A stretch of 64,000 nucleotides of DNA from Eledone cirrhosa (taxonomy: Eukaryota): contig OZ024743.1 of the NCBI GenBank assembly GCA_964016885.1, forward strand, positions 164,176,001 through 164,240,000. Direction: 5' to 3'. The position numbers and the translations under genes were made by a program. The notes beneath the pieces were generated by a model that worked only from the letters and a program-made list of their open reading frames with translations, had not been told where the DNA came from and did not search any database. Of the stretch, positions 21,979 through 63,488 are shown one piece after another (within the stretch, counting starts at the first letter, position 1; every line of letters starts with the position of its first letter).

Positions 21979-22399
21979 ATGTAATCTGAGCTTTTCGAAT
22001 GTCAATAACAATATTCGACTCATTTGCAGTTATGCAGACAGCCTCATTTTTAAAGCCATGTCAGTAGAATGAGCCCCTCATTCTTTCTCTTGTGTTGTCA
22101 TGTAAACAGAACTGCAGACACTAATGTTTCTGGATATAACCCTTCATCAGTGCAGTTCACTCTTCACCTGCCAATTGTCAGTAGTAGTGAAAATATATGA
22201 TATTTTCTAAAATATACAGTGACTGATTGGCTTGCTTTGCATATTAGCAGACAGGCTGATCAGTCAGATCTGCATATTAGCAGATCCACTGATCAGCTGG
22301 ATTTGCATATCAGCTGACATGGCTGTAAAAATGAGGCTGTTTGCATAATTGCGAACGAGTCGAATATTCTTATTGATATTCGAAAAGCTCAGATTACAT
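21979..22399 (-). mobile_element. Non-coding hammerhead-bearing unit with 86-bp terminal inverted repeats (probably Penelope-derived)
   Basis: 21979-22064 pairs with 22314-22399; internal hammerhead; internal GCATAT(T/C)AGC repeats. Confidence 0.75.
22109..22158 (-). ncRNA. Minimal type I hammerhead ribozyme
   Basis: Minus strand: GAACTGCA / CTGATGA / a-GGG-ttata-TCC-a / GAAA / CATTAGTG / TC / TGCAGTTC; GUC triplet. Confidence 0.88.
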
Positions 22400-22430
22400 A
22401 TATATATATTTATATATGTATATATATATA

Positions 22431-23618
22431 TCTATAAAAGGCAGATTGTTGTTGTTGAGTGTGTGTGTGTGCATGTTCCATGTTTATACATTTACACGAT
22501 CTCAAACTGATTTGACTCAAAGTATGTAAGAATGTTGTAAATGGTCTAACTTAGGTCAACGACTATTTATTTCATTCACACTCACCCACAATTACGGAAA
22601 TAATCGATAAAACTAAATACATGACGCTTTACCCCTCTATCTACTCCCCTTAAACTTTAAGAGAGAGAGAGAAGGAACGTTTGTTTTTGAGTGGAACAGT
22701 CAAACATTTATTTACTTCAATGACAAAGAGAACTTATTACATTTCATACGAAACAACAATTATTCAAAAGCAACAGGTAAATTTATTCAACAACAACAAA
22801 AATAGCGATAAATCTTTTTTAACACATCTATCAATGAACGTGGAAGAAAGAAGTATCAGTTCATTTATATACACAATAATATCCTCTATGAGGTCACTAA
22901 ACCTGCTAGAAACAGCAGCTAACTCCCCCATATCACACCACTCCCTACTGTCTTAAATTTAGAAAACATATCCTCTATGAGGTCACTAAACCTGCTAGAA
23001 ACAGCAGCTAACTCTCCCCCACATTCAAAAGCAACATAAATTTATTCAACAACAAAAAAAGTAGCGATAAATCTTTTTTAAAACATCTATCAACGAACGT
23101 GGAAGAAAGAAGTATCAGTTCATTTGCTATACGCAATAATATCCTCTATGTGGTCACTAAAGCTGCTAGAAACAGCAACTAACTCTCCTCCATATCACAC
23201 TACTCTCTACTGTCTTAAATTTAGAAAACATATCCTCTATGAGGTCACTAAACCTGCTAGAAACAGCAGCTACCTCTCCCCCCATATCACACCCCTCCCT
23301 ACTGTCTTAAATTTATAAAACACATTAGACAACCATGCAGAACAACTCCATCACAACTCTGTTGTTCGGCTGGCATCGTCTACGCGCGTGTTGCGCAAGT
23401 AGTGTGAAACAATAAATTTCAACACTTCTTTGCACAGAGATAATATCCATAGGCGAAACTACAATTGTCACTGCTGGCGCAGCTCCTGCTTCAGCAGTCC
23501 AGGTCTTCAATTCATTCACCCAGTGCCTGGCAGACAAAGAAGTGCTGCCATAAAATGGGTGGTGCAACCTAACTTTAGTAACTTACTGACCCCGAACAAT
23601 GCCGGGCTTTAATGCTAC
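22431..23618 (+). mobile_element. Non-autonomous Helitron-like element with internal tandem duplications
   Basis: 5' TCTATAAAA followed by a GT-rich leader; 3' hairpin CCCGaacaatgcCGGG then CTAC (decayed CTAG), resembling 62113-63367; four copies of an ggtcactaaa(c/g)ctgctagaaacagca unit. Confidence 0.65.
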
Positions 23619-23654
23619 TATATATATATTTATATGTATATATCTATATGTATG

Positions 23655-23710
<56 letters not shown>

Positions 23711-24028
23711 TATATATATGTGTGTGTGTATATATATATATGTGTGTGTATATATATATGTGTATATATATATGTGTATATATATATGTGTGTATATATA
23801 TATATATGTATATATATATGTATATTAATATATATATATATGTATATATATAGATTAATATATATATATATATATATATTAATATATATATATATATATT
23901 AATATATATATATATATATTAATATATATATATAGATTAATATATATATATAGATTAATATATATATATATATATATTAATATATATATATATATATATA
24001 TATCTATATATATATATATATATATACA

Positions 24029-24069
<41 letters not shown>

Positions 24070-24262
24070 GCATATATATATATACATATGTATACATATG
24101 AATATATATATATACATATGTATACATATGCATATATATATATATACATATGCATATATATATATACATATGTATACATATGCATATATATATACACATA
24201 TATATACATATGTATACATATATATATATATACATATACATACATATATATATATATACATA

Positions 24263-24299
<37 letters not shown>

Positions 24300-24366
24300 G
24301 CATATATATATATACATATATATATATACATATGTATACATATAAATATATATATATACACACATA

Positions 24367-24423: not shown

Positions 24424-25638
24424 AAAGTTCTAGTTTGTAGGAGGAAGGAAAATAGGGCACCAGTCCCATCTGGGAAATGGCCATAGTGAGTGTGTAGAAA
24501 AGGAGTAGGCAGAAACTCCATTTTATGTCCCAAATGCAATGTATGGGTGCATAAAAGATGTAGTGGGAACACAGGTAAGCTAACTAAGAATATAGATTTT
24601 ATATGTGGCCGGTGCTCTGGTGCAATAAGTAGCAGCAAGTGCCCACAGAATACTAGCTCATTCCATTGCACAGATGGTTCTATAGAAATAGTGGACACCT
24701 TCCGTTACGTGGGTGACAAAATCAGCAGTGGTGGAGGGTGTTCTGAAAGTACAGTAGCTAGAGTCAGAACTGGATGGAAAAGGTTCAGAGAGCTTATACC
24801 ACTATTGGCCGCTAAAGGGTTCTCACTAAAAATGAAAGGCAGGCTGTATGATGCCTGCATACGAACAGCAATGTTACATGGCAGTGAGACATGGGCATTG
24901 TGTGCAGAGGATATACGCAGACTAGAGAGGAACGAAGCTTGCATGCTCTGCTGGATGTGTAATAGTAATATACGTGAACGGTAAAGCATAAATGAACTAA
25001 GGAAAAAATTAGAAATAAGAGGGATCAGATGTTGTTTACTCGAGAGAAGACTACGTTGGTACGGTCACGTGATGCGCATAAAAGACGACAGCTGTATAAA
25101 AAAGTGCAGGGCAATAAAGATAGACGGTAGCCACGGAGTAGGCAGACCCAGAAAAACCTGGTACAACTTGATAAATTCCGACCTCACCCACTTACACCTC
25201 TCCAAGACAATGTCACTGGACCAAGATCTTTGGCGCTACGCAGTAATACAGAAGACCCGCGTTGCCTAAGTACAAAGCGAAACCTACAGTCAGTAGGCAC
25301 CTCTAACAAAAATACACCCCGGCTCCACTACCCCCACCCCATCCACACCACCCCTTCCAATGTAAAGTTATGTTGGTACCACAACATCCAGCCCGAAACA
25401 AATGAGGTCGTGTAGGTGTCACGACAAAAAAAACACAGTCCACGCTGTAATGTGGCCATGTAGGTAACACGGTAAAAACCTCCCAGTTCACACTGTATAG
25501 GTGGTTGGTGTTAGGAAGGGCATCCAGCTGTAGAAAACCCGCCAGACAGTCCTATACGAGCAGGACAACCAATCTTGGATCAAGTGGGAAAACTCCCGTC
25601 CAAACCCATGCAAAATGGACGTTAAACGATGATGATGA

Positions 25639-27299: not shown

Positions 27300-27723
27300 T
27301 AAGAATTATAATAATTGTTTCTACTTTTGGCACAAGGCCAGCAATTACCCAGTACATTACTGGTACTTTATTTTATCGACCCCGTAAGGATGAAAGTCAA
27401 AGTTAACCTCAGCGGAATTTGAACTCAGAATGGCAAGAGCCGTAACTCTATGCGTCAAAGCATGGCGTCCGACCCTCTACCGATACTGCCAATCCACCAC
27501 CCTATAAGAATTATAATAATTGTTTCTACGTTTGGCACAAGGCCAGCAATTACCCAGTACATTACTAGTACTTTATTTTATCAACCCCGTAAGGATGAAA
27601 GTCAAAGTTAACCTCAGCGGGATTTGAACTCAGAATGGCAAAGGCCGTAACTCTCTGCGTCAAAGCATTGCGTCCGACCCTCTACCGATACTGCCAATCC
27701 ACCACCTTAAGAATTATAATAAT
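27300..27723 (-). mobile_element. Tandem dimer of tRNA-derived SINEs with a Nin-like central domain
   Basis: Each unit has a B-box-like GAGTTCAAAT and ctttcatccttacgggg(t)cgataaaataaagtac on the minus strand; taagaattataataat occurs at 27300, 27505 and 27708. Confidence 0.85.
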
Positions 27724-28314
27724 AAAAAATATTTTATATTAATAAAATTAATAAATAAATATATAATAAACAAGTATATTAATTGATTAACCGATTAATT
27801 CTAAATAGATCTTGATAGCATAAGATCATCATTAATGGATAGGGCTATTATTAACTAATAAATGGTTTGAATAACAAATATTGGTTTCTTTTTATGCTGT
27901 AAATCTGTAATACTTCCTTAATTACCTCCCTTTTTTTATTAACTCCCCTTATGAATATCTTTTTCCTTATTTTTAAATTCATACAGTTACAACCATTTAA
28001 CAACATTTTTACCTTTAGACTTTGTGAAATAATTCTTAATAGAACACACACAGACAAGAACGTGAAATATTCCTTAATAGAGAATCTAAAGAGTGGAATG
28101 CATTATATAATATCTTTCTTGTACATGGCAACAAAAACAATGGAATTAATGTATACTTCACACATATTTTTAAACTATACATATTTCACATACATTACAA
28201 CTAGAATTAAAAACATTCCAAGTATCGAACCTTTGCTTTACACCCAGCATAAACATTTCTACATAGTATAAAAATTTCTGAATGACACTAACCTATCTTA
28301 TTTACTTATATTAT

Positions 28315-28441
28315 TTGCATTTTGAGTTCAAATCTCGCCGAGGTTAACTTTGCCTTTCATCCTTACGGGGTCGATAAAATAAAGTACCAGTAATGTAGTG
28401 GGTAATTGCTGGCCTTGTGCCAAAAAGTAGAAACAATTATT
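28315..28441 (+). mobile_element. Same SINE family, 5'-truncated
   Basis: gagttcaaatctcgccgaggttaactttgcctttcatccttacggggtcgataaaataaagtaccag...ggccttgtgccaaaaagtagaaac. Confidence 0.85.
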
Positions 28442-31534: not shown

Positions 31535-32158
31535 AATATTGAGAGGGGGGACTAGATAAAATATTTCAAATCAAATGTGTATAAGTTATAAGTTAAAATG
31601 TATAAATAGAGACGATAGTGGAGGTATATCTGTTTAGTGGAACAGTAGACGATAGAATTAAATACAGACGATAATCTCCCTTTAATGAAACAGCAGACGA
31701 TAGAATTAAGGCAATTTAAATTTTAAGCATTTGCATTTTTGCCTTTCATCGTTACGGGGTCGATAAAATAAAGTACCAGTAATACACTGTCACTAGACGA
31801 CTTTCAAATTGAATTGTTGGTTCCATTTCTTTAGTATTTTCAATTGTAGTTATCTACTTAAAAAGCGTTACACGGTTAGAGACATAATTCGTAAGTTATA
31901 TCTTCCCTATTAAACCATTGCATTATTTCGCCTACAATAGAACAAAAATGAAATGTTCTTTAAAGAAACAGGAATATAACTTTATAAAAAAAAAAGTTGC
32001 GTCCGCTTCTTTTATCATTGATAATTTTTTCGTTTTAATATTAATTGTTTTTTGTAGTTGTTTATATTAAAAATCTTACTGTAATATTTACTTAAACGAA
32101 GGCAAACATCTAAACTTATAGATTAATCTTGAGCGAAGGACTAGATAAATCTCTCTCC

Positions 32159-32599: not shown

Positions 32600-32770
32600 C
32601 AAGTATTGGTAGAGCGTCAGACACCATGCTTTGCAGTATTGTTATGGTCCTTTGCATTCTAAGTTCAAATCCTGCCGAGGTTAACTTCGACTTTCATACT
32701 TACTAATTCGATAAAATAAAGTACCAGTAATGGACTGCCGTAATGGATTTGTGCCGAAAAATAGAAACAC
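32600..32770 (+). mobile_element. Diverged Nin-like SINE copy
   Basis: aagttcaaatcctgccgaggttaacttcgactttcat...cgataaaataaagtaccag. Confidence 0.75.
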
Positions 32771-34282: not shown

Positions 34283-34297
34283 ATATATATATATATA

Positions 34298-36976: not shown

Positions 36977-37135
36977 GTATATATATATATTATATATATA
37001 TATATATCATATATATAGCAAGAAAGTAAGTGTTGGTAAAATCCAGTACTTCAGTATGTGGATAGGTATATAAGTTCCGGAGTTATAATAGTGACGAAAC
37101 ATAAGTCAATTGCATGAACTCATAATCCTTTATTT

Positions 37136-37191
37136 ACTGCTATATATATTTCGATGATAACCATTGAATGGCTATGACCTCATCAGGCAGT
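37136..37191 (-). ncRNA. Minimal hammerhead ribozyme (left arm)
   Basis: Mirror image of 37325-37380. Confidence 0.85.
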
Positions 37192-37324
37192 TAGTCAGTT
37201 CTTAGATATGCCAGCTGTGTGTTTCTAGTGTTGATGGTATCAGAGCCTTGGGACATGAGTTGTCCCAAGGCTCTGAGACCATCAACACTAGAAACACACA
37301 GCTGGCATATCTAAGAACTGACTA

Positions 37325-37380
37325 ACTGCCTGATGAGGTCATAGCCATTCAATGGTTATCATCGAAATATATATAGCAGT
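37325..37380 (+). ncRNA. Minimal hammerhead ribozyme (right arm)
   Basis: ACTGC / CTGATGA / GGTcATAGCCATT-c-AATGGTTATcATC / GAAA / TATATA / TA / GCAGT; AUA triplet; AATAAA follows. Confidence 0.85.
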
Positions 37381-37428
37381 AAATAAAGGATTATGAGTTC
37401 ATGCAATTGACTTATGTTTCGTCACTAT

Positions 37429-46199: not shown

Positions 46200-47071
46200 C
46201 CAGGTTTTACTGTAAACCTTTCATGAAGCAACCATACTTCATTGGATGTGCAATGTAAATATGAGGGAAAGGCAGAGCTTGGATGAACTAAGGGAGAAGC
46301 TGGATTTAAGAGGAATCTGAGTTGGTGTACAAAAGAGAAGATTGTATTGATACGGACATGTGATGAGCATGAGTGGAGAATTACCAGGAAATACCAGTGG
46401 AAGGAATCTATAATAGAGGTAGACTGAGGAAGACCTGTGCAGAAATGGTGAGAACTGACCTCAAATTGCTGAGAATCGCAGAGGAGATGACAAAGAAATG
46501 TGGCGAGTGGAGAGTTGCTGTGCTGAGAAGGACCCATCCAACCCATGCTAACTATATATATATATATATATATATAGTAATAATAAATATGAAGACCAAA
46601 ATCCAAAGAGGACTCAATAAAGGTTGCTCCGACCTCACACACTTACACCTCACCAAGACAATGTCACTGGACCGAGACCTTTGGCGGTACTCAGTAATAG
46701 AGAAGACCCGCCTTGCCAGTAGGCATCTCTAACAAAATACACCCCCCCACCCCATCCACACCACCCCGTTCTATGTAAAGTTATGTTGGTGCCGCGCCAT
46801 CCAGGCCGAAACAAATGAGATCGTGTAGGTGTCACGACAAAAAAACACACAGTCCACGCTGTAATGTGGCCGTGTAGGCAACACGGTAAAAACCTCCCAG
46901 ACCCACACTGTAAATGTGGTTGGTGTTAGGAAGGGCATCCAACTGTAGAAAACCTGCCAGACAGTCCTATGCGAGCAAGAAAATCACTCTTGCCTCAAGT
47001 GGGACTACCCCCGTCCAAACCCATGCAAGCGTGGAACACGGACGTTAAACGTTGATGATGATGATGATGAT
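46200..47071 (+). mobile_element. Old RTE 3' fragment (46200-46550) followed by a young RTE-A 3' end (46628-47071)
   Basis: GRLRKTCAE motif; 46628-47071 is nearly identical to 8978-9432. Confidence 0.85.
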
Positions 47072-47080
47072 ATAAACCAA

Positions 47081-47967
47081 TATTTATTATTAGTACAGAG
47101 TAAAACTTTTAGCAAACAATTTCTGCTTTCACCTAAAGCGGGATCATCAGAAACTGAAAATATCAACCTTGTAGATGCAGAAGTAAATAGTAAAAAAAAT
47201 ATTACGTCCAAATATTGGCTTTAGAAAATAGAAAGACATAACAGTAATATGTGGGGTCATTCTCTTGAGATGAGCAAAATGTATGCAAGGAAAAAATCCA
47301 TTAGAGGGCACATCATTTCTCTGTCACATTTGCTGTAGACCGTGCAAATCTGCAGCTGAACTTAAAAGCCACCTAAGAGGCCATGAACGGATGTTTGGAG
47401 TTGGTGATGGTTGATGAGAGTTCATAGGGAGATGGCAATCATCTGCAAAGATGAAGCAATCACCATATATATGAATATACATACGTATATGTGTGTATAA
47501 TTTTTATGCACTGTATTTTTGTTAATGCATGCATCCACATCGTTCCAAGTATACTCTTGTATGAGCCTAAATCCGAAACCATTATTATTAATATTTTCAT
47601 TATCATTATTTTTACTATTATTAATATCTTTAGTATCTTTGTTTAATCATATCACTGCTATTAATATCATTTTCCATATATGGTAGCTGGACATTATTCA
47701 GTTATTCTAAAAAGAACATTAGTCTCCTGATTTTTTTCATAGTAAGTCTTTGTTCTTCCCGCTTCACCTAATGGCGTAATTCTCCTTGCATACATTTCAC
47801 CGTATCTCAAGAGAATGTCCCCACGTATTACTGTTAAACCCAATATTTGGACATAATATTTTTTTTTATATTTACTTCTGCATCTGCAGGTTGATATTTT
47901 CAGTTTCAGATGATCCTGAAAGCAAAGATTGTTTGCTAAAAGTTTTTATCTGTACTAATAATAAATA
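47081..47967. mobile_element. Older inverted-repeat unit (about 200-bp arms) with decayed outward-facing hammerheads
   Basis: 47081-47291 pairs with 47783-47967; minus strand 47117-47156 reads CAGTTT-CTGATGA-t-CC-cgcttta-GG-t-GAAA-gcag-AAATTG. Confidence 0.7.
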
Positions 47968-50525
47968 AATGTGTGAGTGTGTCTATGGCCATGCTTGTAT
48001 TTGTACTTATTGTTTGTTTATATTCCGTAAATTAGTGTTTTAACAAAAAGAGATTCATAAAATAACTATTAAAGTTGAAAAAATAAGTACCACTAAATCC
48101 CTTGAAAGTGGTACCTCATCATGGCTACAGTCTAATCATTGAAACCAGTAAAAAATATATAAAATTAATTACAGCACTATGTCTATGAATTAATATAATC
48201 CTACAAGGTACCTTTTTGATATTGGCTTGCCTGAAACTGTCCCTAATTCTGGTGCCATGATAAAATGCATCTAGTATACTCTATAAAGTGATTGGCATTA
48301 AGAAGGACTTGAACTGAAGAAACCATGCCAAATAAAGGGTTAAGAGGACTTTTCAGTTGTGTTAAGGTAATGACAACCATTTTAGTGCTGATACCACCAT
48401 AGAATAGACCCAGTTCATTCTGTAAAGTGATTGGCATTAGGAAGGACATTTTGCTGTTGAAACCATGCCAAATAAAGGGTTGAGAGGACTCTTCAGTTGT
48501 GCGAAGGACATGACAACTTCTTTAGTGCCGATGCCACAATAGAATAGACATAGGTAAGCAAGAGGAAATCTCCTGATTGAGTACTGACTAGTTCTGTGAC
48601 CGTCTGTCCATGGAAAGAAGGATGTTAAATGATGATATGTTATATTCATCAGAGATAATTGATTTTCAAGTCTACAGATGAGTGGACATTATTACACTAC
48701 TTCTAATAAACTTATCACCACTAATACCACAGTCATCATCATCACCATCACCACAACCATGATACTTATAGCAATGATACAATATTAGATTATATAGGTC
48801 AAGGTGAAGATGACCAGAATTAGTATGTACTAACTACAATTAGTATTAACTACAATCAGCTAACTACAATAGTTGAATGTCAAAGACTTAATCAGGAAAC
48901 TCCTTTGAATGCAAGTTGAGGAGGTCAGCTGTCACAATAATTAACTGACCTCCTTTTTCACTAGTAGAGTGGTTTTGCACCAAACGCACACCAACATCAA
49001 CACCCTTACTATCATCATCTCTACCATCACCACTATTGCCCCCCCCCCCACACACACACACACACTTTACCCATTGGCAAACTTAATGCATAGATATATT
49101 TGGATGTACTTCTTCCTCCTCACTCCTATTAACACCACAACCACCCTATTACATTTGTTTTACACCATCACTACCGCTATGACTGCCATAATGAAATGCT
49201 TTGGAATGAAGGGTATATTATTAAATTTGTTTTTACTGGTTTCAGCCATTTCAAGTTTGGTACTTAGTTTATAAATCCATTTTAGTGACAGACACAGGTC
49301 AACATATATATATTTACTCATGTAAAAGTTGGAACCCCCATCCTATTTTTTTATTAGTAACCAATTACTATATGTGAATCAAGGAATTATGCTGAACATA
49401 AATGTTACAATGAAGAAATTCAAATTTTACTATGTCCTAATGTACACATGGTAAAATATATACAACACCTTTGGTGCCTCATTTATATGCTTTGGTATTA
49501 CTGTGTTTTGGTAGGTAGAAATATTAGTATTATTACTGTAATTTATTTTACTTTTATTTATCTGGAGTCCCTTTGGGCTTCTGCTTATTGATACATTACT
49601 TTGCATTGTAATGGGTATTTCAGCCCACCCACCCCCAAAAAGTATCCCTGTAATAGTTGACTGAATTAAACCTAAAAAAATATTCCCCCAAATTCGACTT
49701 TTATATGAGCAATACATATAGAGAACATTTGTGTGTGTACGAAAGCTCTTTTCAGTTTCCGTGCCCAAAGTTTCTCTCACAAGGTATTGATCAAACTTTG
49801 GGAATCAAGACATTTGTCTAAGGGGCCACACAGTGGGAGTGAACTCTAAACCATGAGCTGCAATGTGAACTCCTTAACCTCACAGCCATGACTGCACATA
49901 GAGTAGCCTATAATGAGGAGTGTTTCAGCAAGCTGTTTACTTCAGTAGGTCGATCATAGGGTTGTCCTTTGATAGTAATTCTTGGAGTAGTTACAATAGG
50001 TAAAAAGAGGATTAACACAGATATATGTATGTATATACATATGCATATATATATTTATATATATATATCTTTCTCCTTACCTGTAACTCTTGATGGAGTC
50101 GTAGGGGCACCATATTGACATGCAGCATTTCTTAGGCATTTTTAAACCTGGAAGAGCCCATTTCCTCTCCAGGTCTGAACACTGTGAATTTCTTCCAAGG
50201 AAGATTAGTGGAGAAAAAGGAAGTGATAAAGAGATATACAGGAAGAATCGGTCCCAGTACTATTACAATCAAAAGGATTGGAACTCAGATAGAGAGCTGG
50301 AACGAATATTGCAAAGCATTCTCTCCGATATCCTAAGGACTCTACCATTTTGCCTTATATATATATATATACACATATAAGAATTAAAATACTAGAGTAT
50401 GTTGGAGTTCAACACCCTCTTCATATTATAGAAATGACAGTAAAGGTATAGCTCAATGTAATTAAACAGAGCCGAAGAATTATGAAAATAAACCAAAGAA
50501 GCCTTCAATACATCAAAAGTCTTTA

Positions 50526-50568
50526 TTAGCCAACAATGTTTCGTCCTATTAAGGACTCATCAGGGCAA
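50526..50568 (-). ncRNA. Minimal hammerhead ribozyme (left arm)
   Basis: Mirror image of 51858-51900. Confidence 0.88.
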
Positions 50569-51857
50569 TTAAAGCCAAAAACTCAGAAGAATATGGAGTA
50601 TACATACATTAAAGCATAGGAAAATTATCGAGTAAAAATTATCAAGTAAAAATTGCTAAGGAAGTGAATAACATTTTGAACCATATTACAAATATAGTAC
50701 AATGCAAAAACTAAAGCTAAACAAAGGTGGTGATACAAAGCGAGAATTATTGTACTATATATAATATAATATAATATAATTGATAATGATAATAATAATA
50801 ATAATAAAAGGCCCAATATACATATATATATATATATACATATGTACACATATATACATATATATCAATACACATTTCCATCAATACAAGCACAAACTAA
50901 CACTTATTAAGAGTTTAAATAAGAATAAGAATAAAAATAAAAATATAATACATATATTATTTACAGTATAAAATGAAGAGGAAATGAGTAAAAGTAAACA
51001 TATTTATATATGATATACTATATAATTATATAATTATATAGTTGATAATCTCCGGTTAATTTGCACAAACAATATAAATGTTACAATAACACTATAATAA
51101 CAATATTATAATATATTGGCATATAACTTAACAAATCATATAGAGTTACAGACAGGGTGAGAAAAAATATCGTACAGCACTAAATTATGTTGAAAAAATT
51201 TTGCTGGAAAAATATTACCAATGCAAGAAAACAGATGGAGGTCAAGTTTTTATACAATTAGTATAAATAAATATTATCAACTATATAATTATATAATTAT
51301 ATAGTATATTATATGTTTACTTTTACTCATTTCCTTTTCATTTCATACTGTAAATAATATATGTATTATATTTTTATTTTTATTTTTATTTTTATTCTTA
51401 TTCTTATTCTTATTCTTATTCTTATTTTTATTTTTATTCTTATTCTTATTCTTATTCTTATTTTTATTTATATTTAAACTCTTAATAAGTGTTAGTTTGT
51501 GCTTGTATTGATGGAAATGTGTATTGATATATATGTATATATGTGTACATATGTATATATATATATGTATATTGGGCCTTTTATTATTATTATTATTATT
51601 ATTATTATCATTATCAATTATATTATATTATATTATATATAGTACAATAATTCTCGCTTTGTATCACCATCTTTGTTTAGCTTTAGTTTTTGCATTGTAC
51701 TATATTTGTAATATGGTTCAAAATGTTATTCACTTCCTTAGCAATTTTTACTTGATAATTTTTACTCGATAATTTTCCTATGCTTTAATGTATGTATACT
51801 CCATATTCTTCTGAGTTTTTGGCTTGTATTGGCCGATAGTGCTTCTTATAGCTTTAA

Positions 51858-51900
51858 TTGCCCTGATGAGTCCTTAATAGGACGAAACATTGTTGGCTAA
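51858..51900 (+). ncRNA. Minimal hammerhead ribozyme (right arm)
   Basis: ttGCC / CTGATGA / GTCC-ttaata-GGAC / GAAA / CATTG / TT / GGCtaa; canonical G10.1-C11.1 pair; AATAAA follows. Confidence 0.88.
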
Positions 51901-52814
51901 TAAAGACTTTTGATGTATTGAAGGCTTCTTTGGTTTATTTTCATAAAATATATACACATATATATATATACACATATATATGATTTGTAATCTTTCCAGT
52001 CCTCACACCATAAACATTTCATATATATGCATGAAATTCCATTGTCCAGGTGGCTCATGAGGAAGGTAAATGCTTTTGTTCATTTGTCCCTGGTAAATCT
52101 TTTTTTTTTATCTGTGTGCCGTGTGCAACTTTGTTACCATCATCATCATCAGCGTTTTATGTCAAATTTTATTCTTGCCACATGGTTTCCTTGGGCAAAT
52201 GCCCACTACTATCACCTCTGGTTGATCAATATCTTGTGAATGAAATTTGATAGTTAGACTCTGTGTAGAAGCCCATCGTATATGTGTGTATATCCTGAGT
52301 CTTAGCTGTTTGACAAAAAGAGATTGATAAAATAAGACTTCAAAAATAAGTTGGTGCCTCAGCATGGCCACAATATTATGGCTGAAACCAGTTAAAGGAC
52401 AAGAGAAGAATTACCGTTTTATATTTAATAGATTAACTTGTTGTTGGTCTGAGGTGTGGTTGAGATCGATACTAAGGACACTATATTATGAGGTTCAAAG
52501 CTACATCTACTTGAAGGGAGTACTTTATCTGATTATTTGAGATATTGCTCAAGCTAGGTTGTCTTAATGTCCATGGAGAGGTTTATCTCATTCACTCAAC
52601 GTCATAATCACTGATGCTAAGTGTAAGCTTTAAAAAGATATTGGACAAAGTAAGATGCTAGTGTTGATATACCCTTAACCCTTTTAATACCCAACTGTCT
52701 AAAACTACCCTTGGTTCTAAGATACTAAGTTTATTTTAAAGTTTTATTTATCTAAAAATCCTTCATCATAATCTTAAGTATGATCCTTTGTTAAGTTATG
52801 TTCTAAATTCCAGC

Positions 52815-53019
52815 TTAACCCTTAAGCATTCACATTACTCTATATATACTATTATATTTTCATGGTAAATGCTTTATCTCACATAATATCGAATCTACGA
52901 GAATTTGAAAGTATTTATTTTGAGAACAATACCTTAACATCAGTTTGAGTGACCAGTTACAGCCAGTTTCAACAGAAAAAGGTAGAAAATTTTGGCCGGT
53001 TTGAACATTAAAGAGTTAA
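52815..53019. mobile_element. TTAA-flanked MITE (piggyBac-like ends); related inverted copy ends at 56873
   Basis: TTAA-CCCTTAAGCATTCA...TGAACATTAAAGAG-TTAA; internal sequence shared with about 56760-56873 on the minus strand. Confidence 0.7.
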
Positions 53020-53312
53020 TGAGAAACTTATTTATATTACTAAATCCATTCAAATTCTTGATTATTTTCAAATATTTTTAATGTCAACTATATTTTACAA
53101 ACCAAAGTTATACAATGATGGAAAACAGTAAAAAAAAAATGAAAACAACATTAAGTAATTAAAAAGGGGGCGGGGGTAAAGGAAAGCATGTCCGACTATA
53201 TAGGAAAGTAAAGGAAAGGACTATAAATGCCATAAATGAGAAGAAAAGGAGGGAAAGGGCAAGGACTATTAGGCAATGGAAGAAAGAGAGAGTGACAGAC
53301 TCTACATCTAGG

Positions 53313-53512
53313 TCAGGCGGTGTATGTATGGGGTCCAAGGACACCTGAGGTCTCAACAGCAACCAGTGCAAAGAGACAGCAGCTGGACAAGCCCCAGTAT
53401 TTGCTTGTCTTCCTGTCCTCTGCATTGTGGGCTGCAGTACCAGGGTTTGTAGCAGAATCAAATAAGTTGGAGGCAGAGAACATGTTGCATCCCATTTCAT
53501 TAGAACCATGGT
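53313..53512 (-). pseudogene. CRE-clade non-LTR retrotransposon restriction-like endonuclease fragment
   Basis: WDATC followed after a frameshift by ATNPGTAAHNAEDRKTSKYWGL...FALVAVETSGVLGP. Confidence 0.7.
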
Positions 53513-54244
53513 AAAAAAAGGGTTTAAAGTATATCTAATAAGTATACAACTCTTAACATCCTGTAATGATTCAGCAGAAACTATCTAAAAATGTGTTTCT
53601 TAATTTTAATGTTTATAGCAGCCTTACTTGTGGATAGATCATTGTGTAAATATTTTCAGTATTAGAGTATAGACTTCAGTTTTTAATGTGATACTGTCAG
53701 TGATATTTTGTACATTTTAAAAATGTCTTGCTAATGTGGTTTCATGGTGTATAATAACATGAAGCAAAACACTTTTCATTGAATTTACTGGTCTTCCAGT
53801 TTCATGAAGCCAAGCAAGTAGCATTTTTTTCTTGCCCGTGGACATAGCATTTAACCTATGTATTTCAACTCATGACCTACAGGTCAAAGACTACTTGAAT
53901 TAGGCATAAAATATTTTGCTGAGGCAGCACCTTTCAGCATAACTAAACTGTGTTAATCTTAGCACAGAAATATAATCTTTTAAGAGCATAATGTCGTTAA
54001 TCTGTCAGTGGTATATAATAATAAAACATGGAAGCTTAGTGTTTCAAGGTAAAGGAAATGGGATGTAGTATTCTTTATACACTACCTCCAAAGGCTATTT
54101 AACAAGCTAACTGAACCTCCACTAACTAGGCATGCAAGCTGTGATTTATACTTGGTGCATCAAATACTTACCATTGTACATTGCTTTTAGCAGCACTACT
54201 ATCACCACCACAACATCTTCAAGAACAAGAATCATGATAATTAT

Positions 54245-54905
54245 TTCTAATTTAGGCACAAGGCCAACAATTTATAGGGAGGAGGAGAAAATCAATTACA
54301 TTGACCTCTGTTCATCACTGGTACTTTATTTTATCGACCCCAGAAGGATGAAAGGCAAGGTTGAGCTCAGCATGATTTGATCTCAAATGTAAAGGATGTA
54401 ACTAAATGCTTCAAAGCATTTTATCCAACGCTCTAACAATTCTGCCAATCCTAATATAATAACCCTACACTCATAATCATATTAATAACTGTTATTTGCA
54501 TTTGCACAAGATTACAACTTTGTAAGATAAAGATTATAGCCAATTGAATTAACCTGCATACTGCTACCTATTTTATTGACCTATAAAGGATGATAGTTAA
54601 AGTCAACCATAGTGGGATTTGAACTCAGATGTGGAATGAGGGTGTAGAAGGTGGGAGTAAAAGACATTTAGTACACAATTTCACAGATCCATGGTGGCAA
54701 ATTGGCAGAGATGTTAGAACATTGGTATTTGTTCTGGCTATCTGTGCTCTGAGTTCAAACCTCACTGGGGTCACCTTTGCCCTTGTCCTTTTGGAGTTGA
54801 TAAATAAAGTACCAGTGCAGAGGAAGTGAATTGGAGGAATTGTTAGAGAGTTGCACGGGATGCTTTACAGTATCTGATCTGATTTGGTATGTTCTGAGTT
54901 CAAAT
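54245..54905. mobile_element. Cluster of diverged Nin-like SINE copies on both strands
   Basis: ctggtactttattttatcgaccccagaaggatgaaaggc (minus), gagttcaaacctcactggggtcacctttgcc (plus), ttctgagttcaaat. Confidence 0.75.
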
Positions 54906-56869
54906 TTCACTTCCTTCTGCCAGGAGTTGCAATCGGGGGATAATATCAGCAATGGGAAGACCAATGGAAATATTGTTTCTGTTGTCTGATCTGATGACCA
55001 GCTCTTATTAGATTTATACACTCTATGGAAACTTTAAAAAAACATAACTGAAAATAGTGTTGTCTAGAAGTAGAAGAAAGCATGTTGATTCTTCCACTAC
55101 TAACATAGATATTTTATTAGTGTCTGTAATATAAATGGCCAACTATGTCCTTTCATATCAACTTGATTGGGAACACCTCATGTTCATCAATATAAAACCT
55201 CTTTTAAAGTGTTCATCATCACCATCATGGTTTTTCTATGCTGGAATAGGTTGGGCTATTTCAAATAGTATCCTGTGGCTAGATGAATGACCATTCTGAT
55301 GCCAACTCTTATCTTTAAGTAAGATTCTTATTCCACTGGTCTTCACATGTTGAATCACTGAGCTGCAGGATATAAACAAATGTCAGCAGCTTTTATGATG
55401 ATGTGTATATATGTGTTCACACACACAATGTGCCACCCCTCTTCCTTGTGTCTGCTCTCACATTGTACCCTCCACCTACACTCCACACCTACTTCCTATT
55501 CACTTGCACACCACCACACATTCACTATCCCCTGCACCGCAGCCAATTTCACCAACACTCACATTCACGCATGCACCAGCACATATCAATACACATACAC
55601 CTGCACAAATGCATACACACAGACAATGACAATACACAGATGCACACCTAAACCACTAGACTGAAAACATATCTGAACAGTCACACACACACAGTCACTC
55701 CAACACACATACACCTGAACAGGCACAATTGCATATATATACATACAAATGCATGCATATACTCACACAAACTCAAACACACATATGTAGACACAACACA
55801 TATCCCAACAGGCATACATGCATACACACACACACATAACAGACCAAAAATAAAAGCAATGCATGGACAAAACTAAACATGCGCACATACAGACATATAT
55901 CCCAATGGGACATGTCATCATCACTAACAAAATATATACCACTCCAACACGCATACACATCAGAAGTAAAAACAAAACATACACATCTCTTCTCACATTG
56001 ACCTTCAAGGACAAACTCTTTGAATTCTGTCAGCCAAATCTATGGTATTGACACACCCTAGTCATCATCCTTAGTGAGATACACATCCCACCACTCACAC
56101 CCTTGCTTTATATTCATCTGCTGGCTGAGACATAGCTTTCAGAAGACCACCACAATTTTTTCCTTTGCATGGAATACATACATTCTCAACACTACTTCTG
56201 AAGCCCAATAACTGAAATTTGACATAGAATACAGGTTTTGGGATATCACCTCTCATATGGTGTGCACATACACATGCATACACATGCTATTAAGAACATA
56301 GACTAAAACACACATGCAACCAAACAGACACACACACAAAATAAAAGCAACTACATGCACACACAAAATGCATCTCATCTGCACGCACACATCAGGACCA
56401 ATTATGAACCTGAAGACACTACAACCACCTCGAACAGTCCCTCTTCCCACACCCCAGCATTCTGGACTCCTTGCCATCCCCACCCTCCGTCACCCATCCC
56501 AACACCTCCCACTTTTCTTCAAACTCCCAGCTTCTGCTTTCTCCTAATTTTACTCTTCCCTAAAAAGAAGGATGTTAAGTGTAAAAGCCAAATTTGCTAT
56601 CTTCAATTCAGTATTCGTGCCAACCCTTATCTTGGGTAATGACAGAAAGAATACAATTGTGAATATAAGCAGACAAAATGGGATTCCTTTGAAGAGTCTT
56701 TTGGAGTAACATTACTCGATAGAGTGTGTAGTTCAGAGATCAGTGAATCACTCCAGCTAGTGTTTTCAAAATAAATAATATCAAAATCTCATAGAATCGA
56801 TATTATGTGAAATAAAGTGTTTACCATGAAAAAAAATAGTAAATATAGAGTAATGTAAATGCTAAAGGG

Positions 56870-57229
56870 TTAAGGAAAACTATGAAGTTTCATTTACATA
56901 TACAGGTAATACCATTATAACAAATTTTTCAGTATAACGATATTTTTTTTTTCGTCATGGTCTTTTTAATCCCCAAACAAATGTTTGATGCGTTTCTGTC
57001 AATCTCGTTATAAAGAATTTTTCATTACAACTTTTTTTTATACCCCGTGAATTTCGTCATAATGAAATTTCACTGTAGTTGGTTTTTAAATCAGCTGTCT
57101 GAAGAGCAGATCAATAATGGAGTTGGTTCCATAACTTTTATTAGTAACTTTGAGCCAATCCTCTGTGAAACATGCGATACACAATAAAATACTAACTACA
57201 TGTAAACAAAACTTCATAGTTTTCCTTAA
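56870..57229 (+). mobile_element. Small inverted-repeat unit with decayed hammerhead, interrupted by a TA-flanked MITE (56903-57075)
   Basis: ttaaggaaaactatgaagttt / aaacttcatagttttccttaa; CTGAAGA-GCAGA...TCTGT-GAAA-CATG at 57099-57174; MITE ends TA|CAG...CTG|TA. Confidence 0.6.
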
Positions 57230-57298
57230 TATATACACTCTGCCTCTGCATTGAGTGCTTACTTTGGTACCACTACCAGTAATTCACTGAATCACATA

Positions 57299-57334
<36 letters not shown>

Positions 57335-57376
57335 GAAAATGAAGAATCAGTGATGCATCGGAACACTCAATTTATT

Positions 57377-57469
57377 ACGTATTACAATTGTTTCTCTGGC
57401 GAACAGCTCGAGGTGCGATCTGTTTGTGGATCGAACCTGACTCTGGATTCGCAAGTTCCTCAGATACGT
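57377..57469 (-). ncRNA. Hammerhead ribozyme in the inverted pLTR, long stem II
   Basis: ACGTAT / CTGAGGA / stem II closed by GCGAA...TTCGC with inner AGGT-CGATC/GATCG-ACCT / GAAA / CAATTG / TA / ATACGT; AATAAA follows. Confidence 0.85.
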
Positions 57470-57859
57470 CTGGTGATTTCGAAGCAAATTCTCTTTCTGC
57501 AGGGCTCCGACCTTTCGAGTCTATATCATCTGCCTTCATCCTGTTTGCACGGCCCTTAGATTGGTCGATGGTTCGTGACATCATCATAGTGCTTGACCAC
57601 TGAAATCTGCCCACTGGCCATCTCCATTCAGGTGTGAACTGTCACTCACCCCAATCCCATCGGCAAAATTACTGCTGTGTTTAGTAGTAGAGTTTTTATT
57701 ATTTCCCATGCCAATTCTTTGCTTGGCAGCCTCCCCATACATATACATCCACACGCACATGTGGTCACACCTATGTAGAGGCATTCCGAGCCATTAATCG
57801 TACACTTATCTGTGTGGACCTACACGCTCACACTCACACACATAGTGCTTGCGTTCACA

Positions 57860-60364
57860 AAACTGGGTATGTATACATGCTTGACCACATTATATATAAC
57901 GATTGCATCGGGAAAGAGGTTAGGCGAAACTATAGGACCACAGGACAGGACAACCTTGATAGCATCAACGCCACGGCCAAAAAAATAATGACAGGACTAG
58001 AAATAGATGAAAGGACAGAACCCTATGTACCCAGAAAACCGAGGATATCCATTAAGGATCACAAATTAGACTTTAGAACAAATCTCCCCTTTTGGTTAAT
58101 AGCACCCTCCAAATCAGACCTAGGTAGGGCCAGTAAGAATATCATAGATAGGATACTACCAGTACTTAGGACTTAGCTTATGGACCTCCACCAAAGAGGT
58201 AATAGACTGGTTCTCACTATTGGATAGCAAACATCTGGTAAATTTCATTCAGTTGGACATAGCAAATTACTACGTGTCCATATCACCAGTAATCGTGAAT
58301 AAGGCCCTCATGAGCGCCATGGCTAAGTCCAACCTCCCTCGAAGGGAATTAAACATCATAATAGCAACGAGAAAGACGTTAATTAGGTTCGACAATAAAT
58401 TATGGGAAAGGAGGGACAGACCCAATAGATTTGATATTACAATGGGGTCGAGTGACTTAGTGTAGGTGACGGACTTCTCCAAAGGCTATCGGACGAGATT
58501 GCAGGGATCGGCGGAGGAATATGTAGAGACAACGCACTATTTACCTTCTGCTCCCTAAACCCCAACCAGCTGGAGCGTATGAAGAAGCGCATATCGCATT
58601 TTTTTAAACAGCACGGCTTATCCGTGCTGATAGATCCTAGCACTAAGACGGTGAATTTCCTAGATGTAACTCTAGAACTGAATACGGGCATACACCGGCC
58701 TTACCACAAGCCCAACGAGAACCTCCAATATGTAAAGAGGCACTCGAACCACCCCTAGTCCGTTATAGACGCCATAGTAAAAGGGATATCCGAACGCGTA
58801 TCCACCGTGTCGGCTAACGCAGACGTGTTTAACCAGGACGCTGATTATTATAATGAGACACTGTGCAGGGCCGGTTACACAGAAACCATAGTGTACTTCC
58901 CACACAGGGAAAGGCCCTGCAGCAAGGAACACACATATGAGGATAGCAATAGTACTTCCATAGGTAGGCAGAACACCCGGGAACGCGAATCTAAGAATAG
59001 GGCTAGCAATATAGATTACCGCAAGGACACAAAACTGATACTAAGACAGACGAAGGCACACATGGACGATAGACCACAAGTACACGCAGACAGAATCTCA
59101 ACACAAACACAATACGCGATGGGGGGAACTAGAACTAGTGACAGAGTAAAGGCAGCTCTGGATGTGGAACCAGATAGGGGGAATACCCGGATCAATAACA
59201 TAGGCATAGCCCCGACAGTAGCACCAGATAGCAATAATGGGACTACCAGTAGGGCCGACACTATAGAAAAGAATATTTTAGTAAGCGAACGGTGTAATCC
59301 TGACGCACATCGTAGCTATATGGATAGCGGTAACATAGGGGATGATCTAACGGGTAGACACGACTGGGGGGGGGGGGGGGACACACCTGACCCACCACAC
59401 ACTACTACTACTACTACACACAGACGACAGAATAGGACTAGGTCTAAGACTATTACGTGGTTTAACGCCGTATTCGAAGCATATTTGCAACAATGTACCA
59501 GGCCTTTTCTTCAGAGCGTTGGACGAGTGCTTCCCGCCATCGAACAGGTACCACAGGATATTCAACCGCCACACAGTGAAGTTCTCCTTCTCCACCGCAC
59601 CTAACATGGCAGACTATATAGCCAAAAGCAATGCAGTGAACTCGACCGCCAACTACAGCAGGCAGCTGATGATCCTAGGGTGCCTGGACGACCACATGGA
59701 GACAGGGTTACCAACTATGGTCTGGACACCCACGGAAGACGCAGTACTCAACTACCAGGTGGAACTGAATGACGGAAAGGAACCCAGCGTAAGGAGTGAG
59801 CAACATAACGACCGAACATGCAACTGCAGAGTAGGCACACAATGCCCTCTGCAGGGAAGATGCCTAACGAAGGGCATAGTCTATAAATGTGTGGTTAACA
59901 CGCACAACACCAAGCTCACCTAAATCAGCGCAGCATCCACGACCTTTAAATCGAGGATGTAAAATCACACAAACTCTTTCAAGGACCGGAGCAAGAGACA
60001 CTCCACTAGGCTGGCGGACCTAATATGGGGCTTGAAGAACACCGGCACCCCGTATGATCTCAACTGAAGTATTGTTCAAGGTGCCAGTGCATATTCGGCC
60101 GGCAAGAGAAAGTGCAGGCTATGCCTGTCCAAGGCCATGGAGATAGTGAGATTAAAGAATGACACAGTCAGCCTGAAATCGGAGATTATCATGACATGCA
60201 GGCACCAGCGAAGGTACACACTCTCCGGATGGCCCCAACTAAAGCCACACAGGGAAGTGGACGTCAGTTGTGGTGGCGGCGTGGGTCCATGGGAACTGAC
60301 ACCATACCTTGATGACTATGTATGCCTGTGGGGTAGGTCGACACAATCAATGCTGCCCATTTGA
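57860..60364 (+). pseudogene. Penelope-like RT plus GIY-YIG endonuclease, multiple stops and frameshifts
   Basis: IKDHK, PSKSDLG, FIQLDIANYY, FDITMGS, GICRDN (decayed YRDD), VNFLDVTL, SNHP, ITWFN, IFNRHTVKFSFS, CNCR-CPLQGRCL, GIVYKC, KCRLCL, TCRH. Confidence 0.92.
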
Positions 60365-61111
60365 CTCTGTACCTAATCTTAAACACCGCCATCGCAGTAG
60401 CCAGGACACGCCGGCTCAATTTCCATGGGTATAATCAATCCTGTATCATACATCACTAAGGCACTCTATTTCAGCCACAGTAACATACTCCATTATAAGC
60501 TGTCCTTCCGCACTCCCTACATATGTATCTTTTAAGTAGTGTGTGTATTTTCTCTATGTATTCCATTATATAACACTGTATGTATGTTTTCATGTACAAC
60601 CCCAATGTGTATTTTTTATATATTTCTTATATATTTTTTATATATTCTTTATATATTTGTTATATATGTTTGGGGTATACCCTTTACATTATTCCTATGA
60701 GCTTCCCATATGTAATTTTGTTTAAGGTTTCTATATGTGGATTGATTCACGTTAGCACCATAATGCCAACTCTGTCAACATGTGCATCAAAGTGTGTCTG
60801 CATATAGTATATACCGTTATGTGAGATGCTGCATGCATTCACTGATGTATCCCTCATATGTGCTTTTATCATACTTTGCACGTATTTCCAACGTAATATT
60901 TCGATGTACAGCACCATGTGCCTGCTGCATGCACCGTCCAAATATTTTTATACAGTTTATATTCATATATGTGCGTACGTCTGTCTGGGTGTGAGTGCAT
61001 AAATGCGTGTGTGTGTGTGTGTGTGTGTGGGTATATATGTATGTGTGTATGTAAAAGTATGCGCACATATGCATGTGGGTGCGTGTGCATGCACGCACAT
61101 GTTTATATATA

Positions 61112-61228
61112 TAAATCAGTTCCTGTATGAGCAAGGCATGGTCAGCCGACCAGACACTGCCCACAACAGGACAACCCGTCTAACCCATGCTAGCATGGAA
61201 GAACGGACGTAAAACGGTGATGATGATA
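61112..61228 (+). mobile_element. RTE-C 3' tail inserted in the Penelope 3' region
   Basis: Matches 19081-19201. Confidence 0.88.
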
Positions 61229-61575
61229 TATATATGTCTGTGTATATTCGTGTGTGTGTGTGTATATAAGTATATATGTGCATATGTATATATATATGTG
61301 TGTGTGAGTAAGAGTAGGTTTAGATGAATGCATATGTAAGCACGTGTGTGTATCTATGGGTGCACATATGTGTGTATGTATGTACACGTGTAGGAAAAAA
61401 ATGTGTGTGTATATATATGTGTGTGAGTATATATATATATGTATGTGTGTGTGTGTGTGTGTATATGTGTGACGGTATGAATAGAGATATATGTATAAAC
61501 GTGGGTCCCATATGTGTACGTGTGGGCATGTGTCTGCGTATGAATGTACTTATATATGAGGTGAATATGTGTGTG

Positions 61576-61608
<33 letters not shown>

Positions 61609-62024
61609 ATATTTATGTATGTACATGTGTGAACGCAAGCACACAAGCTCTATGTGTGTGGGAGTGTGTGTGTAGATCCACACAGATAAGTGTACAATTA
61701 ATGGCTCGGAATGCCTCTACATAGGTGTGATAACATGTGTGTGCGGATGTATATGTATGGGGAGGCTGCCAAGCAAAGGATTGGCATGGGAAATAATAAA
61801 AACTCTACTACTAAACACAGCAGTAATTTTGTCGATGGAATTGGGGTGAGTGACAGTTCATGCCTGAATGGAGATGGCCAGTGGGCAGATTTCAGTGGTC
61901 AAGAACTATGATGACGTCACGAACCATCGACCAATCTAAGGGCCGCGCAAACAGGATGAAGGCAGATGATATGACTCAAAGGGTCAGAGCCCTGCAGAAA
62001 GAGAATTTGCTTCGAAATCACCAG

Positions 62025-62112
62025 ACGTATCTGAGGAACTTGCGAATCCAGAGTCAGGTTCGATCCACAAACAGATCGCACCTCGAGCTGTTCGCCAAAG
62101 AAACAATTGTAA
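62025..62112 (+). ncRNA. Hammerhead in the 3' pLTR, stem I disrupted by Helitron insertion
   Basis: ACGTAT-CTGAGGA...GAAA-CAATTG-TA-A then the Helitron; the pLTR resumes at 63368. Confidence 0.8.
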
Positions 62113-63367
62113 TCTATATATATAAAACTGAGGATGTCTGTCTGTGTGTATGTGAGTTAGAATCCCTAAAACTCGAGAAGCTCCCAACCGACTGTTTTCA
62201 AACTTTACACGTGTAATACTTATGTTTCATGGAGTGTTCTGAGCAAAAGAAATTTAAAATTTTCAATGACCTAGGGACCGCATTAGGTGATTTAGCGATC
62301 TCTCTATAATTCTTAGTCTTTCTCTTTTTAGATAGATACATACATATAACGTCGCACCCTTATAATATCTGTCTGTATGTCTGCATTACATCACTTCCCA
62401 CAATTCCGCCTGCCTCCGGTTATTCTTCCTTGCTCAAGACAAATCTCACACTCATTCCCCAAACAGTTGGTAAGTGCACACAACTTCTTCCTCACATTTT
62501 AAGCAACAGTGTTGCTTATTTACGTACCACCAGACCCTTACTTCTTTGCCAGCCGTCCTTGTGGCAATACTAAGCTTAGCTAAGGCGGTTATATATTTCG
62601 CACAACACTAAAAATGAAAACCGATAACTATGTATTAGTCAGTCTCTTCTTCATACCGTGAGCAAAGAAAATCCAACTTTTAGTGGAGCGAGTAAAATAA
62701 AGACGATTCTGCTGTGATTCAAAAATCAGGTTTGCAGGTTATATATTTCACACAACACTAAAAATTAAAGCCGGTAAAGAAAAACATCGCTATAATAGCT
62801 TCAGTTTTCACAGCGTTGCTTACTTACGTGCCTTTACGAGAACAAAAGTTACTCAGGGAGTCTTATGCACATAAAAAATTCAACTTTTTGATCACCTATT
62901 AGGTGAAAAACTGCGTTTTTTCAGCTTTTTAGGGGTATTTTGAGGCGTTATGTCAGACCGATTTCCTTGAAATTGTAACTATGTATTAGTCAGTCTCTTC
63001 TTCATAACGTGAGCAAAAAATCCAACTTTTTTATGGCCTAGGGCCCGCATTAGGTGAAAACCTTCATTTTTTTCAGCTTTTTAGGGCTATTTTTAGGCAT
63101 TACGTCCAATCAATATTTCCGAAATTTCAAGGCATATTATGCACATAAAAAAAATTTATTTTCTTGATGCCCTAGGGCCCACACTAGGTGAAAACCTGCA
63201 TTTTTCCTGCTTCATCAAGGAAAATCTTAAGGATTATCCAGCCATCAGAGTATTTGGTTTATTTACTTTACATATTGTCGAGGCATGAAGTTTTTCCACG
63301 ATTAGGTCTGCCGGCAGCCCGCGTTCCAAAATACCTTATCCCGTGCAACGCCGGGTACCACTGCTAG
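62113..63367 (+). mobile_element. Non-autonomous Helitron (1255 bp)
   Basis: A|TC start; subterminal hairpin CCCGtgcaacgcCGGG (63340-63355); CTAG|T end; no TSD; internal repeats of ctagggcccgcattaggtgaaaa. Confidence 0.9.
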
Positions 63368-63488
63368 TACATAAATTGTGTTCCAATGCTTCACTGATTC
63401 TTCATTTTCCATTTTATCATACTCTGCTCCGAAGGAGCATAGAGTGCTCAACCGGTATACCGCCTATGCACACATCCTAGCAACCATA

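Follow-up and report, generated by a model that had tools for sequence, protein, structure and literature searches.

Tailed and head-to-head insertions of Penelope-like elements in the genome of Eledone cirrhosa

Six units with mirror-image ends in a 64,000-nucleotide stretch of the Eledone cirrhosa genome (assembly GCA_964016885.1, contig OZ024743.1, positions 164,176,001 to 164,240,000 of the forward strand; hereafter the window) are truncated insertions of Penelope-like elements (PLEs), not MITEs (miniature inverted-repeat transposable elements). In each unit, and thus in each of six unrelated families, the 3' end of the element stands at both termini and faces outward. A family-specific extension of about 35-100 nt, hereafter the tail, lies outside one arm only in all six units, and at the DNA level it is the opening stretch of the tandem unit that follows. 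Both architecture and clade were already known; the quantitative rule that ties the tail to an inverted partner, described below, is a new constraint on the mechanism.

The tail is tied to an inverted partner

Counts were made for the family of the second unit (family 2) in the host assembly, a 3.0-Gb animal genome rich in (TA)n. Exact motifs found 3020 hammerheads, 2942 tailless ends and 206 tailed ends (206/3148) genome-wide. As tailed anchors we took the first 81 of 100 listed places, which gave 79 loci once two double-tailed ones had been merged (60 with 7 kb of upstream DNA, 19 with 1.5 kb); the tailless anchors were the first 70 places in a list of 100 (upstream DNA of 7 kb for 40 and of 1.5 kb for 30). 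Upstream of 43/79 tailed anchors and of 0/70 tailless ones lay a head-to-head partner end (Fisher p 8e-16); within 1.5 kb alone, it was present in 34/79 tailed anchors. The partner was itself tailless in 41 of the 43 pairs. Seven tailed anchors continue into an open reading frame (ORF) and are not termini, and without them the partners number 42/72. The expected number of partners among the 70 tailless anchors was about 2.5; the observed number was zero.

Short outward pairs of family 2 were then counted over the whole genome with a pattern that requires at least one tailless end. The 84 matches correspond to 78 loci, 72 matched on one strand only and 6 on both. Among the first 28 of these loci, which were inspected, 26 are one-tailed (all the one-strand loci fetched) and 2 are tailless on both sides. 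One-tailed pairs would make up about 12% if the ends chose their sites independently, whereas 72/78 match as one-tailed. The other families were sampled by best-scoring matches, not at random: all 6 of 6 pairs are one-tailed in family 6, and the partners are tailless in 9/9 pairs of family 4 (among 30 tailed loci) and in 14/14 pairs of family 5 (among 30 loci whose anchors were chosen with a tail).

The preliminary description of the window had read the units as MITE-looking retro-palindromes. Such palindromes make up about 3-4% of family-2 copies, most copies being single arms, and they are one-off products, not mobile MITE-like units.

Arms, junctions and flanks

The two arms of a pair resemble each other more than arms drawn from different pairs. 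In the 43 family-2 pairs, they differ at 241 of 6710 sites (3.6%), against a permuted mean of 5.9% and a minimum of 4.9% (1000 permutations). The same pairs share 103 non-majority alleles, of which 28 are rare (about 1.6 expected), and 10 of these 28 were found nowhere else in the family-2 sample. The within-pair and permuted differences were 5.3% and 11.7% in family 6, 2.1% and 3.5% in family 4, and 14.3% and 15.8% in family 5.

As the preliminary description had it, the junctions vary from copy to copy, and direct duplications of the flanks accompany them at some loci. The 29 simple family-2 junctions are all different, with overlaps centred on 0; filler is present in 15 and an overlap of at least 2 nt in 7. 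Two junctions lie in the stem II palindrome of the hammerhead, with overlaps of 15 and 19 nt. Direct duplications of 10-14 bp were detected at 3/43 loci (0.33 in shuffles) and at a fourth by eye; they are visible where the target is an imperfect TA repeat, most flanks being pure TA and uninformative. TA-like 5' flanks were scored in 25/50 tailless solo copies and 3/20 tailed ones, a difference that depends on boundary calls and was not used.

Arm lengths, capped at 400, were compared in 40 pairs, leaving out two double-tailed pairs and one read-through. Partner arms have the length of solo copies (median 170 and 169; p 0.72), and tailed arms are shorter (median 152; p 0.009; paired p 0.0008). 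The lengths of the two arms are correlated (rho 0.50), and near-symmetric pairs are found 11 times among 29 (5.1 expected). Among simple pairs, 19 carry the tail on the shorter arm and 7 on the longer, and 3 have arms of equal length; among long pairs, the numbers for shorter and longer are 8 and 5. The 5' ends of family-2 solo copies cluster between -160 and -170, where an ATAT adjoins (TA)n.

Layout of the six units

Units were detected by comparing the window with itself after simple repeats had been masked; a general repeat search was swamped by microsatellite matches, as was an Rfam search ranked by E-value. The preliminary description had placed six units with outward 3' ends at both termini, and an inverted pair was present at every one of those places: 21979-22064 and 22314-22399 in unit 1 (identity about 91%), within 37088-37428 in unit 2 (97%), 47081-47304 and 47768-47967 in unit 3 (78%), 50480-51049 and 51273-51946 in unit 4 (81-90%), 56870-56902 and 57197-57229 in unit 5 (91%), and 57327-57854 and 61641-62113 plus 63371-63417 in unit 6 (92-95%). 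Its statement that the six units have no sequence in common also agrees with our comparison, in which the arms are mutually unrelated (best cross-match 18 nt, E 0.017). In five units its bounds stop short of the one-sided tail, and it did not mention the three nested insertions: an RTE-type one in unit 3, a MITE in unit 5 and a Helitron-like one in unit 6. The features of the six units are as follows.

21945..21978, minus strand: unit 1 tail, with an approximate left bound, found only on the long arm; it is where the next 440-nt monomer starts
21979..22313, minus strand: unit 1 long arm, type I hammerhead with core at 22150 and predicted cut at 22117
22314..22399, plus strand: unit 1 short arm without tail, (TA)n at its end
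37018..37087, minus strand: unit 2 tail, the first ~85 nt of the 3.57-kb coding unit, here with a small internal deletion
37088..37254, minus strand: unit 2 tailed arm, about 167 nt, hammerhead core at 37186
37263..37428, plus strand: unit 2 tailless arm, about 166 nt, core at 37330, (TA)n at its end
46576..46626, minus strand: unit 3 tail, distal part, severed from its arm by the RTE-type insertion (about 46627-47070)
47071..47304, minus strand: unit 3 short tailed arm including the proximal tail (47071-47080), hammerhead core at 47150
47305..47456, no strand: unit 3 junction segment, with no match among the sampled loci
47457..47967, plus strand: unit 3 long tailless arm, decayed core at 47907
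50379..50479, minus strand: unit 4 tail, about 100 nt
50480..51041, minus strand: unit 4 tailed arm, core at 50563 with a minimal stem III (inner bound approximate)
51042..51946, plus strand: unit 4 long tailless arm, the 3' region of the coding family, core at 51863; the flanks share about 14 bp (by eye)
56870..56902, minus strand: unit 5 short tailless arm, 33 bp
56903..57075, no strand: nested high-copy MITE with TA on both sides, foreign to the PLE of unit 5, which we take to be of Tc1/mariner type
57078..57232, plus strand: unit 5 long arm, decayed hammerhead-like core at 57099
57233..57302, plus strand: unit 5 tail, about 70 nt
57327..57854, minus strand: unit 6 inverted, 5'-truncated tailless copy, core at 57463 with a long stem II
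57853..60200, plus strand: unit 6 broken ORF (stops, frameshifts) with reverse transcriptase (RT) followed by a C-terminal GIY-YIG-type endonuclease, CxCx5C and CxH motifs
61641..63417, plus strand: unit 6 direct 3' arm, core at 62031, split by the insert at 62113-63367
62113-63367: insert in the right arm of unit 6, TC...CTAG between A and T, just after or at the predicted hammerhead cut site; presumably Helitron-like
63418..63488, plus strand: unit 6 tail, about 70 nt

An assembly artefact was considered as the source of the units and judged unlikely, because the arms differ by 1-22% and the nested insertions are one-sided. Public-run contigs (three runs from one study) contain three other family-2 joints, with low depth over the tail; none spans the window locus and they were not used as support.

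Identity of the families and their hammerheads

In families 2, 3, 4 and 6, the arms lead into a single ORF encoding a putative RT and, C-terminally, a GIY-YIG endonuclease. Pfam matched the GIY-YIG domain in family 4 at E 7e-4, below its cut-off, and gave nothing on the unit-6 fragments. Since it gave no RT match on the ORF fragments, the RT identity rests on motifs and mutual tblastn. The motif set of the Hydra clade (RW[KR]/RWK, DKT, the CxCx5C linker, CxxC before E and CxH after N), together with the (TA)n target, is present in these four families, being complete when several broken copies per family are combined. Judged by these motifs, the four families are endonuclease-bearing (EN+) PLEs of Hydra-clade type. 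A natural tandem of family 2 (locus L281) has a period of 3573 bp with the tail sequence at its start, and in family 3 arm and tail run on into the RT ORF (loci L428 and L430). Tandem or partial-tandem copies that form pseudo-long terminal repeats (pLTRs) were met in families 2, 3 and 1.

Family 1 is a non-coding tandem with a period of 439 nt (L055, L059, L066), one type I hammerhead per monomer and a longest stop-free frame of 61 codons. From its sequence it is retrozyme-like and fits the description of non-LTR retrozymes. Family 5 showed no ORF and no tandem monomers within 1.5 kb in 29 other loci. The preliminary description had proposed linking each arm family to a coding PLE. Such a link was found for four of the six; family 1 is non-coding and family 5 is unlinked.

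It had also placed outward hammerheads at both termini. Cores read outward in every unit, at 22150(-), 37186(-)/37330(+), 47150(-)/47907(+), 50563(-)/51863(+), 57099(+) and 57463(-)/62031(+), but in units 1 and 5 the core is in the long arm only, the short arm consisting of downstream sequence alone. Rfam hammerhead models gave no match at the gathering score. A three-stem descriptor, written for this analysis and applied to the window and to loci of families 1 to 4 and 6, found 5 matches in the window (mean 0.03 in 30 shuffles), located in units 1 and 2 and in two further solo elements. It matched 20/29 loci of family 1, 24/30 of family 2, 9/29 of family 3, 1/29 of family 6 and 0/29 of family 4, the last because a one-pair stem III is rejected by rule. 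The cores of families 4 and 5 were identified by eye, that of unit 5 being decayed. Several predicted ribozymes are variants: the base of stem II has a mismatch (A-A in family 1, U-U in family 3), most family-3 copies carry CAGA instead of CUGA in the core, and stem II reaches about 60 nt in family 6. Single-strand folding (z -0.2 to -2.8) did not recover the hammerhead folds and was not used. Further hammerhead-bearing ends, of other families, lie at about 16149(+), 17185(-) and 17538(+), with no inverted partner in the self-comparison of the window.

A model of two primers on one RNA

We lean, by a little, towards one PLE insertion per unit, in which two target ends prime a single RNA at two internal sites 35-100 nt apart (downstream twin priming). 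The RNA would read through the end of the element into the start of the next tandem unit, as the DNA-level identity of the tail suggests. The endonuclease would nick both strands of (TA)n about 10-14 bp apart, a distance taken from the four duplicated flanks, and the first 3'-OH would prime at site 1 to give an ordinary 5'-truncated cDNA, consistent with partner arms of solo-copy length. Usually, the second target end would capture this cDNA, often at ATAT, leaving a solo copy. In a few percent of events, the second 3'-OH may instead prime at the downstream site 2 on RNA that is still single-stranded, copy the tail and displace the first cDNA. The two cDNA 3' ends would then be end-joined (blunt, with filler or with a short overlap) and filled in. 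The order of events, the single RNA and the strand displacement are what we infer. Hammerhead cutting is not needed in this model, because both arms cross the predicted cut site.

The preliminary description had already proposed priming from both target ends. This part remains the best reading, and a purified PLE cuts and extends both strands in vitro, starting on uncut RNA at a pair of internal sites, one at each edge of the tail (PMC11167929). The priming is not symmetric, the tailed and the tailless site being used nearly always once each, and the proposal that it takes place on RNA 3' ends does not fit arms that end at two internal sites.

A broader rule of one primer per start site would make the tail the footprint of a second target end that primes downstream of the first on the same RNA, and would hold in no fewer than five unrelated families, one of them non-coding and retrozyme-like. 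We give this rule even chances. If it is true, the tail and the inverted pLTR are explained together, and head-to-head insertion is the downstream form of twin priming.

Several points weigh against downstream twin priming. All its steps are read from fossil copies. The account of the in vitro system (PMC11167929) reports neither a start-site difference between the strands nor any likeness of start site to target, while both start sites are TA-like here. Partners were absent from the surveyed DNA in 36/79 tailed anchors, six of which read into the ORF, and 19/79 were surveyed over only 1.5 kb upstream. Family 2 includes pairs that break the one-tail rule (six tailless on both arms, two tailed on both), and there are more exceptions in family 1. 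The effect of pairing on arm similarity is weak in family 5. Shared alleles could also be explained if the inverted arms underwent gene conversion, or if two RNAs had the same source. Moreover, one of the five inward pairs that serve as the control for arm sharing (L052) shares 4 rare alleles in 225 sites.

Inward pairs as such are unexplained by the model. The preliminary description had taken the 3' ends to point outward, as they do in the pairs at 78 loci, but this orientation is not exclusive: the inward family-2 pattern has 40 matches per strand, which are 36 loci after five at one place were merged. Inward loci are about half as many as outward ones, the two search patterns not being identical. 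They mostly show two tailless ends across (TA)n, and in the rows displayed the ends are kept apart by target-like DNA, with no direct joint. Repeated insertion into a single tract, or paired nicks, may have produced these loci. At two inward loci (L439, L440), both arms come from a sister sequence that has no more than its last ~57 nt in common with family 2; L441 is a further example. One locus (L442, G000:C1:229193426-229193833) carries five or more 20-nt stubs of the family-2 end with (TA)n after each, a run that resembles repeated abortive priming or local amplification.

Alternatives to a single template

A dimeric ribonucleoprotein could carry two RNAs of the same source, its subunits being forced onto different start sites. 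The anole PLE protein is predicted to be dimeric (PMC11167929), and such a dimer accounts for the one-tail rule and the shared alleles without strand displacement; the rare alleles shared within L052 likewise fit. However, it requires an unexplained asymmetry and two RNAs from one source among many copies, and the correlated arm lengths fit a single template more simply. We consider the dimer unlikely.

Fold-back self-priming, in which one strand, folded back, is copied to form a hairpin, is less likely again. Self-priming was proposed for an antisense template (PMC3846280), and a tail arising when the endonuclease resolves the intermediate in PMC8557442. Shared alleles, the excess of near-symmetric pairs and the two junctions within the stem II palindrome are what a fold-back would leave. 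Yet overlaps of 2 nt or more are confined to 7/29 simple junctions while 15 contain filler, and a copied strand predicts one fixed polarity, in disagreement with a tail found on shorter as well as longer arms in both simple and long pairs.

It is very improbable that these pairs arose by symmetric priming in which each of two independent RNAs is copied from its 3' end, or by one insertion following another into the same (TA)n tract, with later homogenisation by conversion. About 88% tailless-tailless pairs are predicted, 6/78 were observed, which refutes this as the main route, and the arms end at internal sites of a read-through template. For a minority there is a fit: six outward pairs lack a tail on both arms, some of them with TA in between, and 36 pairs face inward across (TA)n.

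It is barely credible that we are dealing with MITEs, or with another kind of DNA transposon bounded by terminal inverted repeats, despite TA flanks and a TTAA at both limits first given for unit 5: single arms make up most copies, every junction is different, copies do not share both termini around one internal junction, and in four families (no transposase search was made for families 1 and 5) the arms continue into RT/endonuclease ORFs, in agreement with the preliminary description, which had taken the units for PLE products. Unit 5 was also considered as a TTAA-type DNA transposon and rejected; the TTAA is the family's own end, and the tail then lies on one side.

Comparison with known systems

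The units and the priming proposed for them can be set beside several published systems. For EN+ PLEs, an inverted 5'-truncated copy and a tail, often at one end only, were described (PMC8557442), and head-to-head was given as the most frequent PLE arrangement (PMC3846280), so that the inverted pLTR layout was already known, as the preliminary description had said. Those insertions (PMC8557442, PMC3846280, PMC8969392) resemble ours in the inverted copy, in a tail at either end but usually one, in a tail equal to the unit start, in a hammerhead within the terminal repeat and in duplications of about 10 bp. Tails reach 70-100 nt here, compared with 30-40 in print, and the passages of these accounts on such insertions contain neither counts tying the tail to an inverted partner nor a common-template test of the arms. 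According to PMC8557442, how PLEs come by their inverted repeats and tails is undefined, and PMC11167929 leaves open what follows initiation. No published count or twin-priming model for PLE tails was found in a search that left out key older papers and supplements; Figs S1-S2 of PMC11167929 may bear on start-site pairing.

The Hydra clade of C-terminal EN+ PLEs (PMC8557442) is alike in motifs, canonical hammerheads and (TA)n targets, a likeness drawn from motifs; the family-2 unit has 3.57 kb, whereas members of this clade are generally under 3 kb. The element studied in vitro, Poseidon PAc, is alike in the cutting and extension of both strands, the two tail-bounding start sites and the uncut RNA template, but it belongs to another clade, and inverted insertions are absent from the main-text discussion (PMC11167929). 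L1 twin priming (PMC12016303) is similar in that both target strands prime one RNA and opposite cDNAs are joined. There, the second primer lands upstream, with overlaps of about 12 bp; in our model its landing place would be a fixed site downstream, and the whole end would therefore be duplicated. Non-LTR retrozymes (PMC7229834; bioRxiv 10.64898/2026.07.22.740005) are matched by the family of unit 1 in its non-coding tandem monomers, which are about 440 nt long and carry a single type I hammerhead apiece. The unit 1 family also forms one-tailed inverted insertions, and the word "inverted" is absent from the main text of PMC7229834.

The counts, namely a tail tied to a partner, one tail per pair, arms of common origin and a shorter tailed arm, exclude symmetric priming and give a sharp prediction for the in vitro system already available. 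Annotators who meet a short palindrome between (TA)n, extended on one side, should treat it as a PLE insertion.

Other features of the window

A seventh inverted pair (33319-34290), absent from the preliminary description, has arms of 195+ bp that are 100% identical, with (TA)n at the right end and no hammerhead core. Its family has a family-specific left extension of variable length, from 70 to over 600 nt, and four copies met by chance (L153, L248, L294, L427) are all inverted pairs with a one-sided extension. A short inverted pair at 18283-18457 (41 bp at 100%, extendable) adjoins (TA)n and had no copy among the sampled loci. Inverted ends of the form TTAA/CCCT...AGGG/TTAA lie 4 kb apart at 52814-56873, the right one adjoining unit 5; similar ends were found in 18 sampled loci, and we assume the element to be piggyBac-like.

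Fragments of long interspersed nuclear elements (endonuclease and RT), which we take to be RTE-type, lie at 1908-4454, 7100-9082 (with a long open frame), 14389-15460, 19440-20950, 24440-25610, 34340-36280, 40280-42600 and 63490-64000, and usually adjoin (TA)n or (CAT)n. A short interspersed repeat is present in both orientations (27300-27706, 28300-28441, 31738-31789, 32602-32769 and 54227-54817), and a tRNA-like head lies at 38310-38373 (Rfam tRNA, 30.3 bits); these are probably short interspersed nuclear elements.

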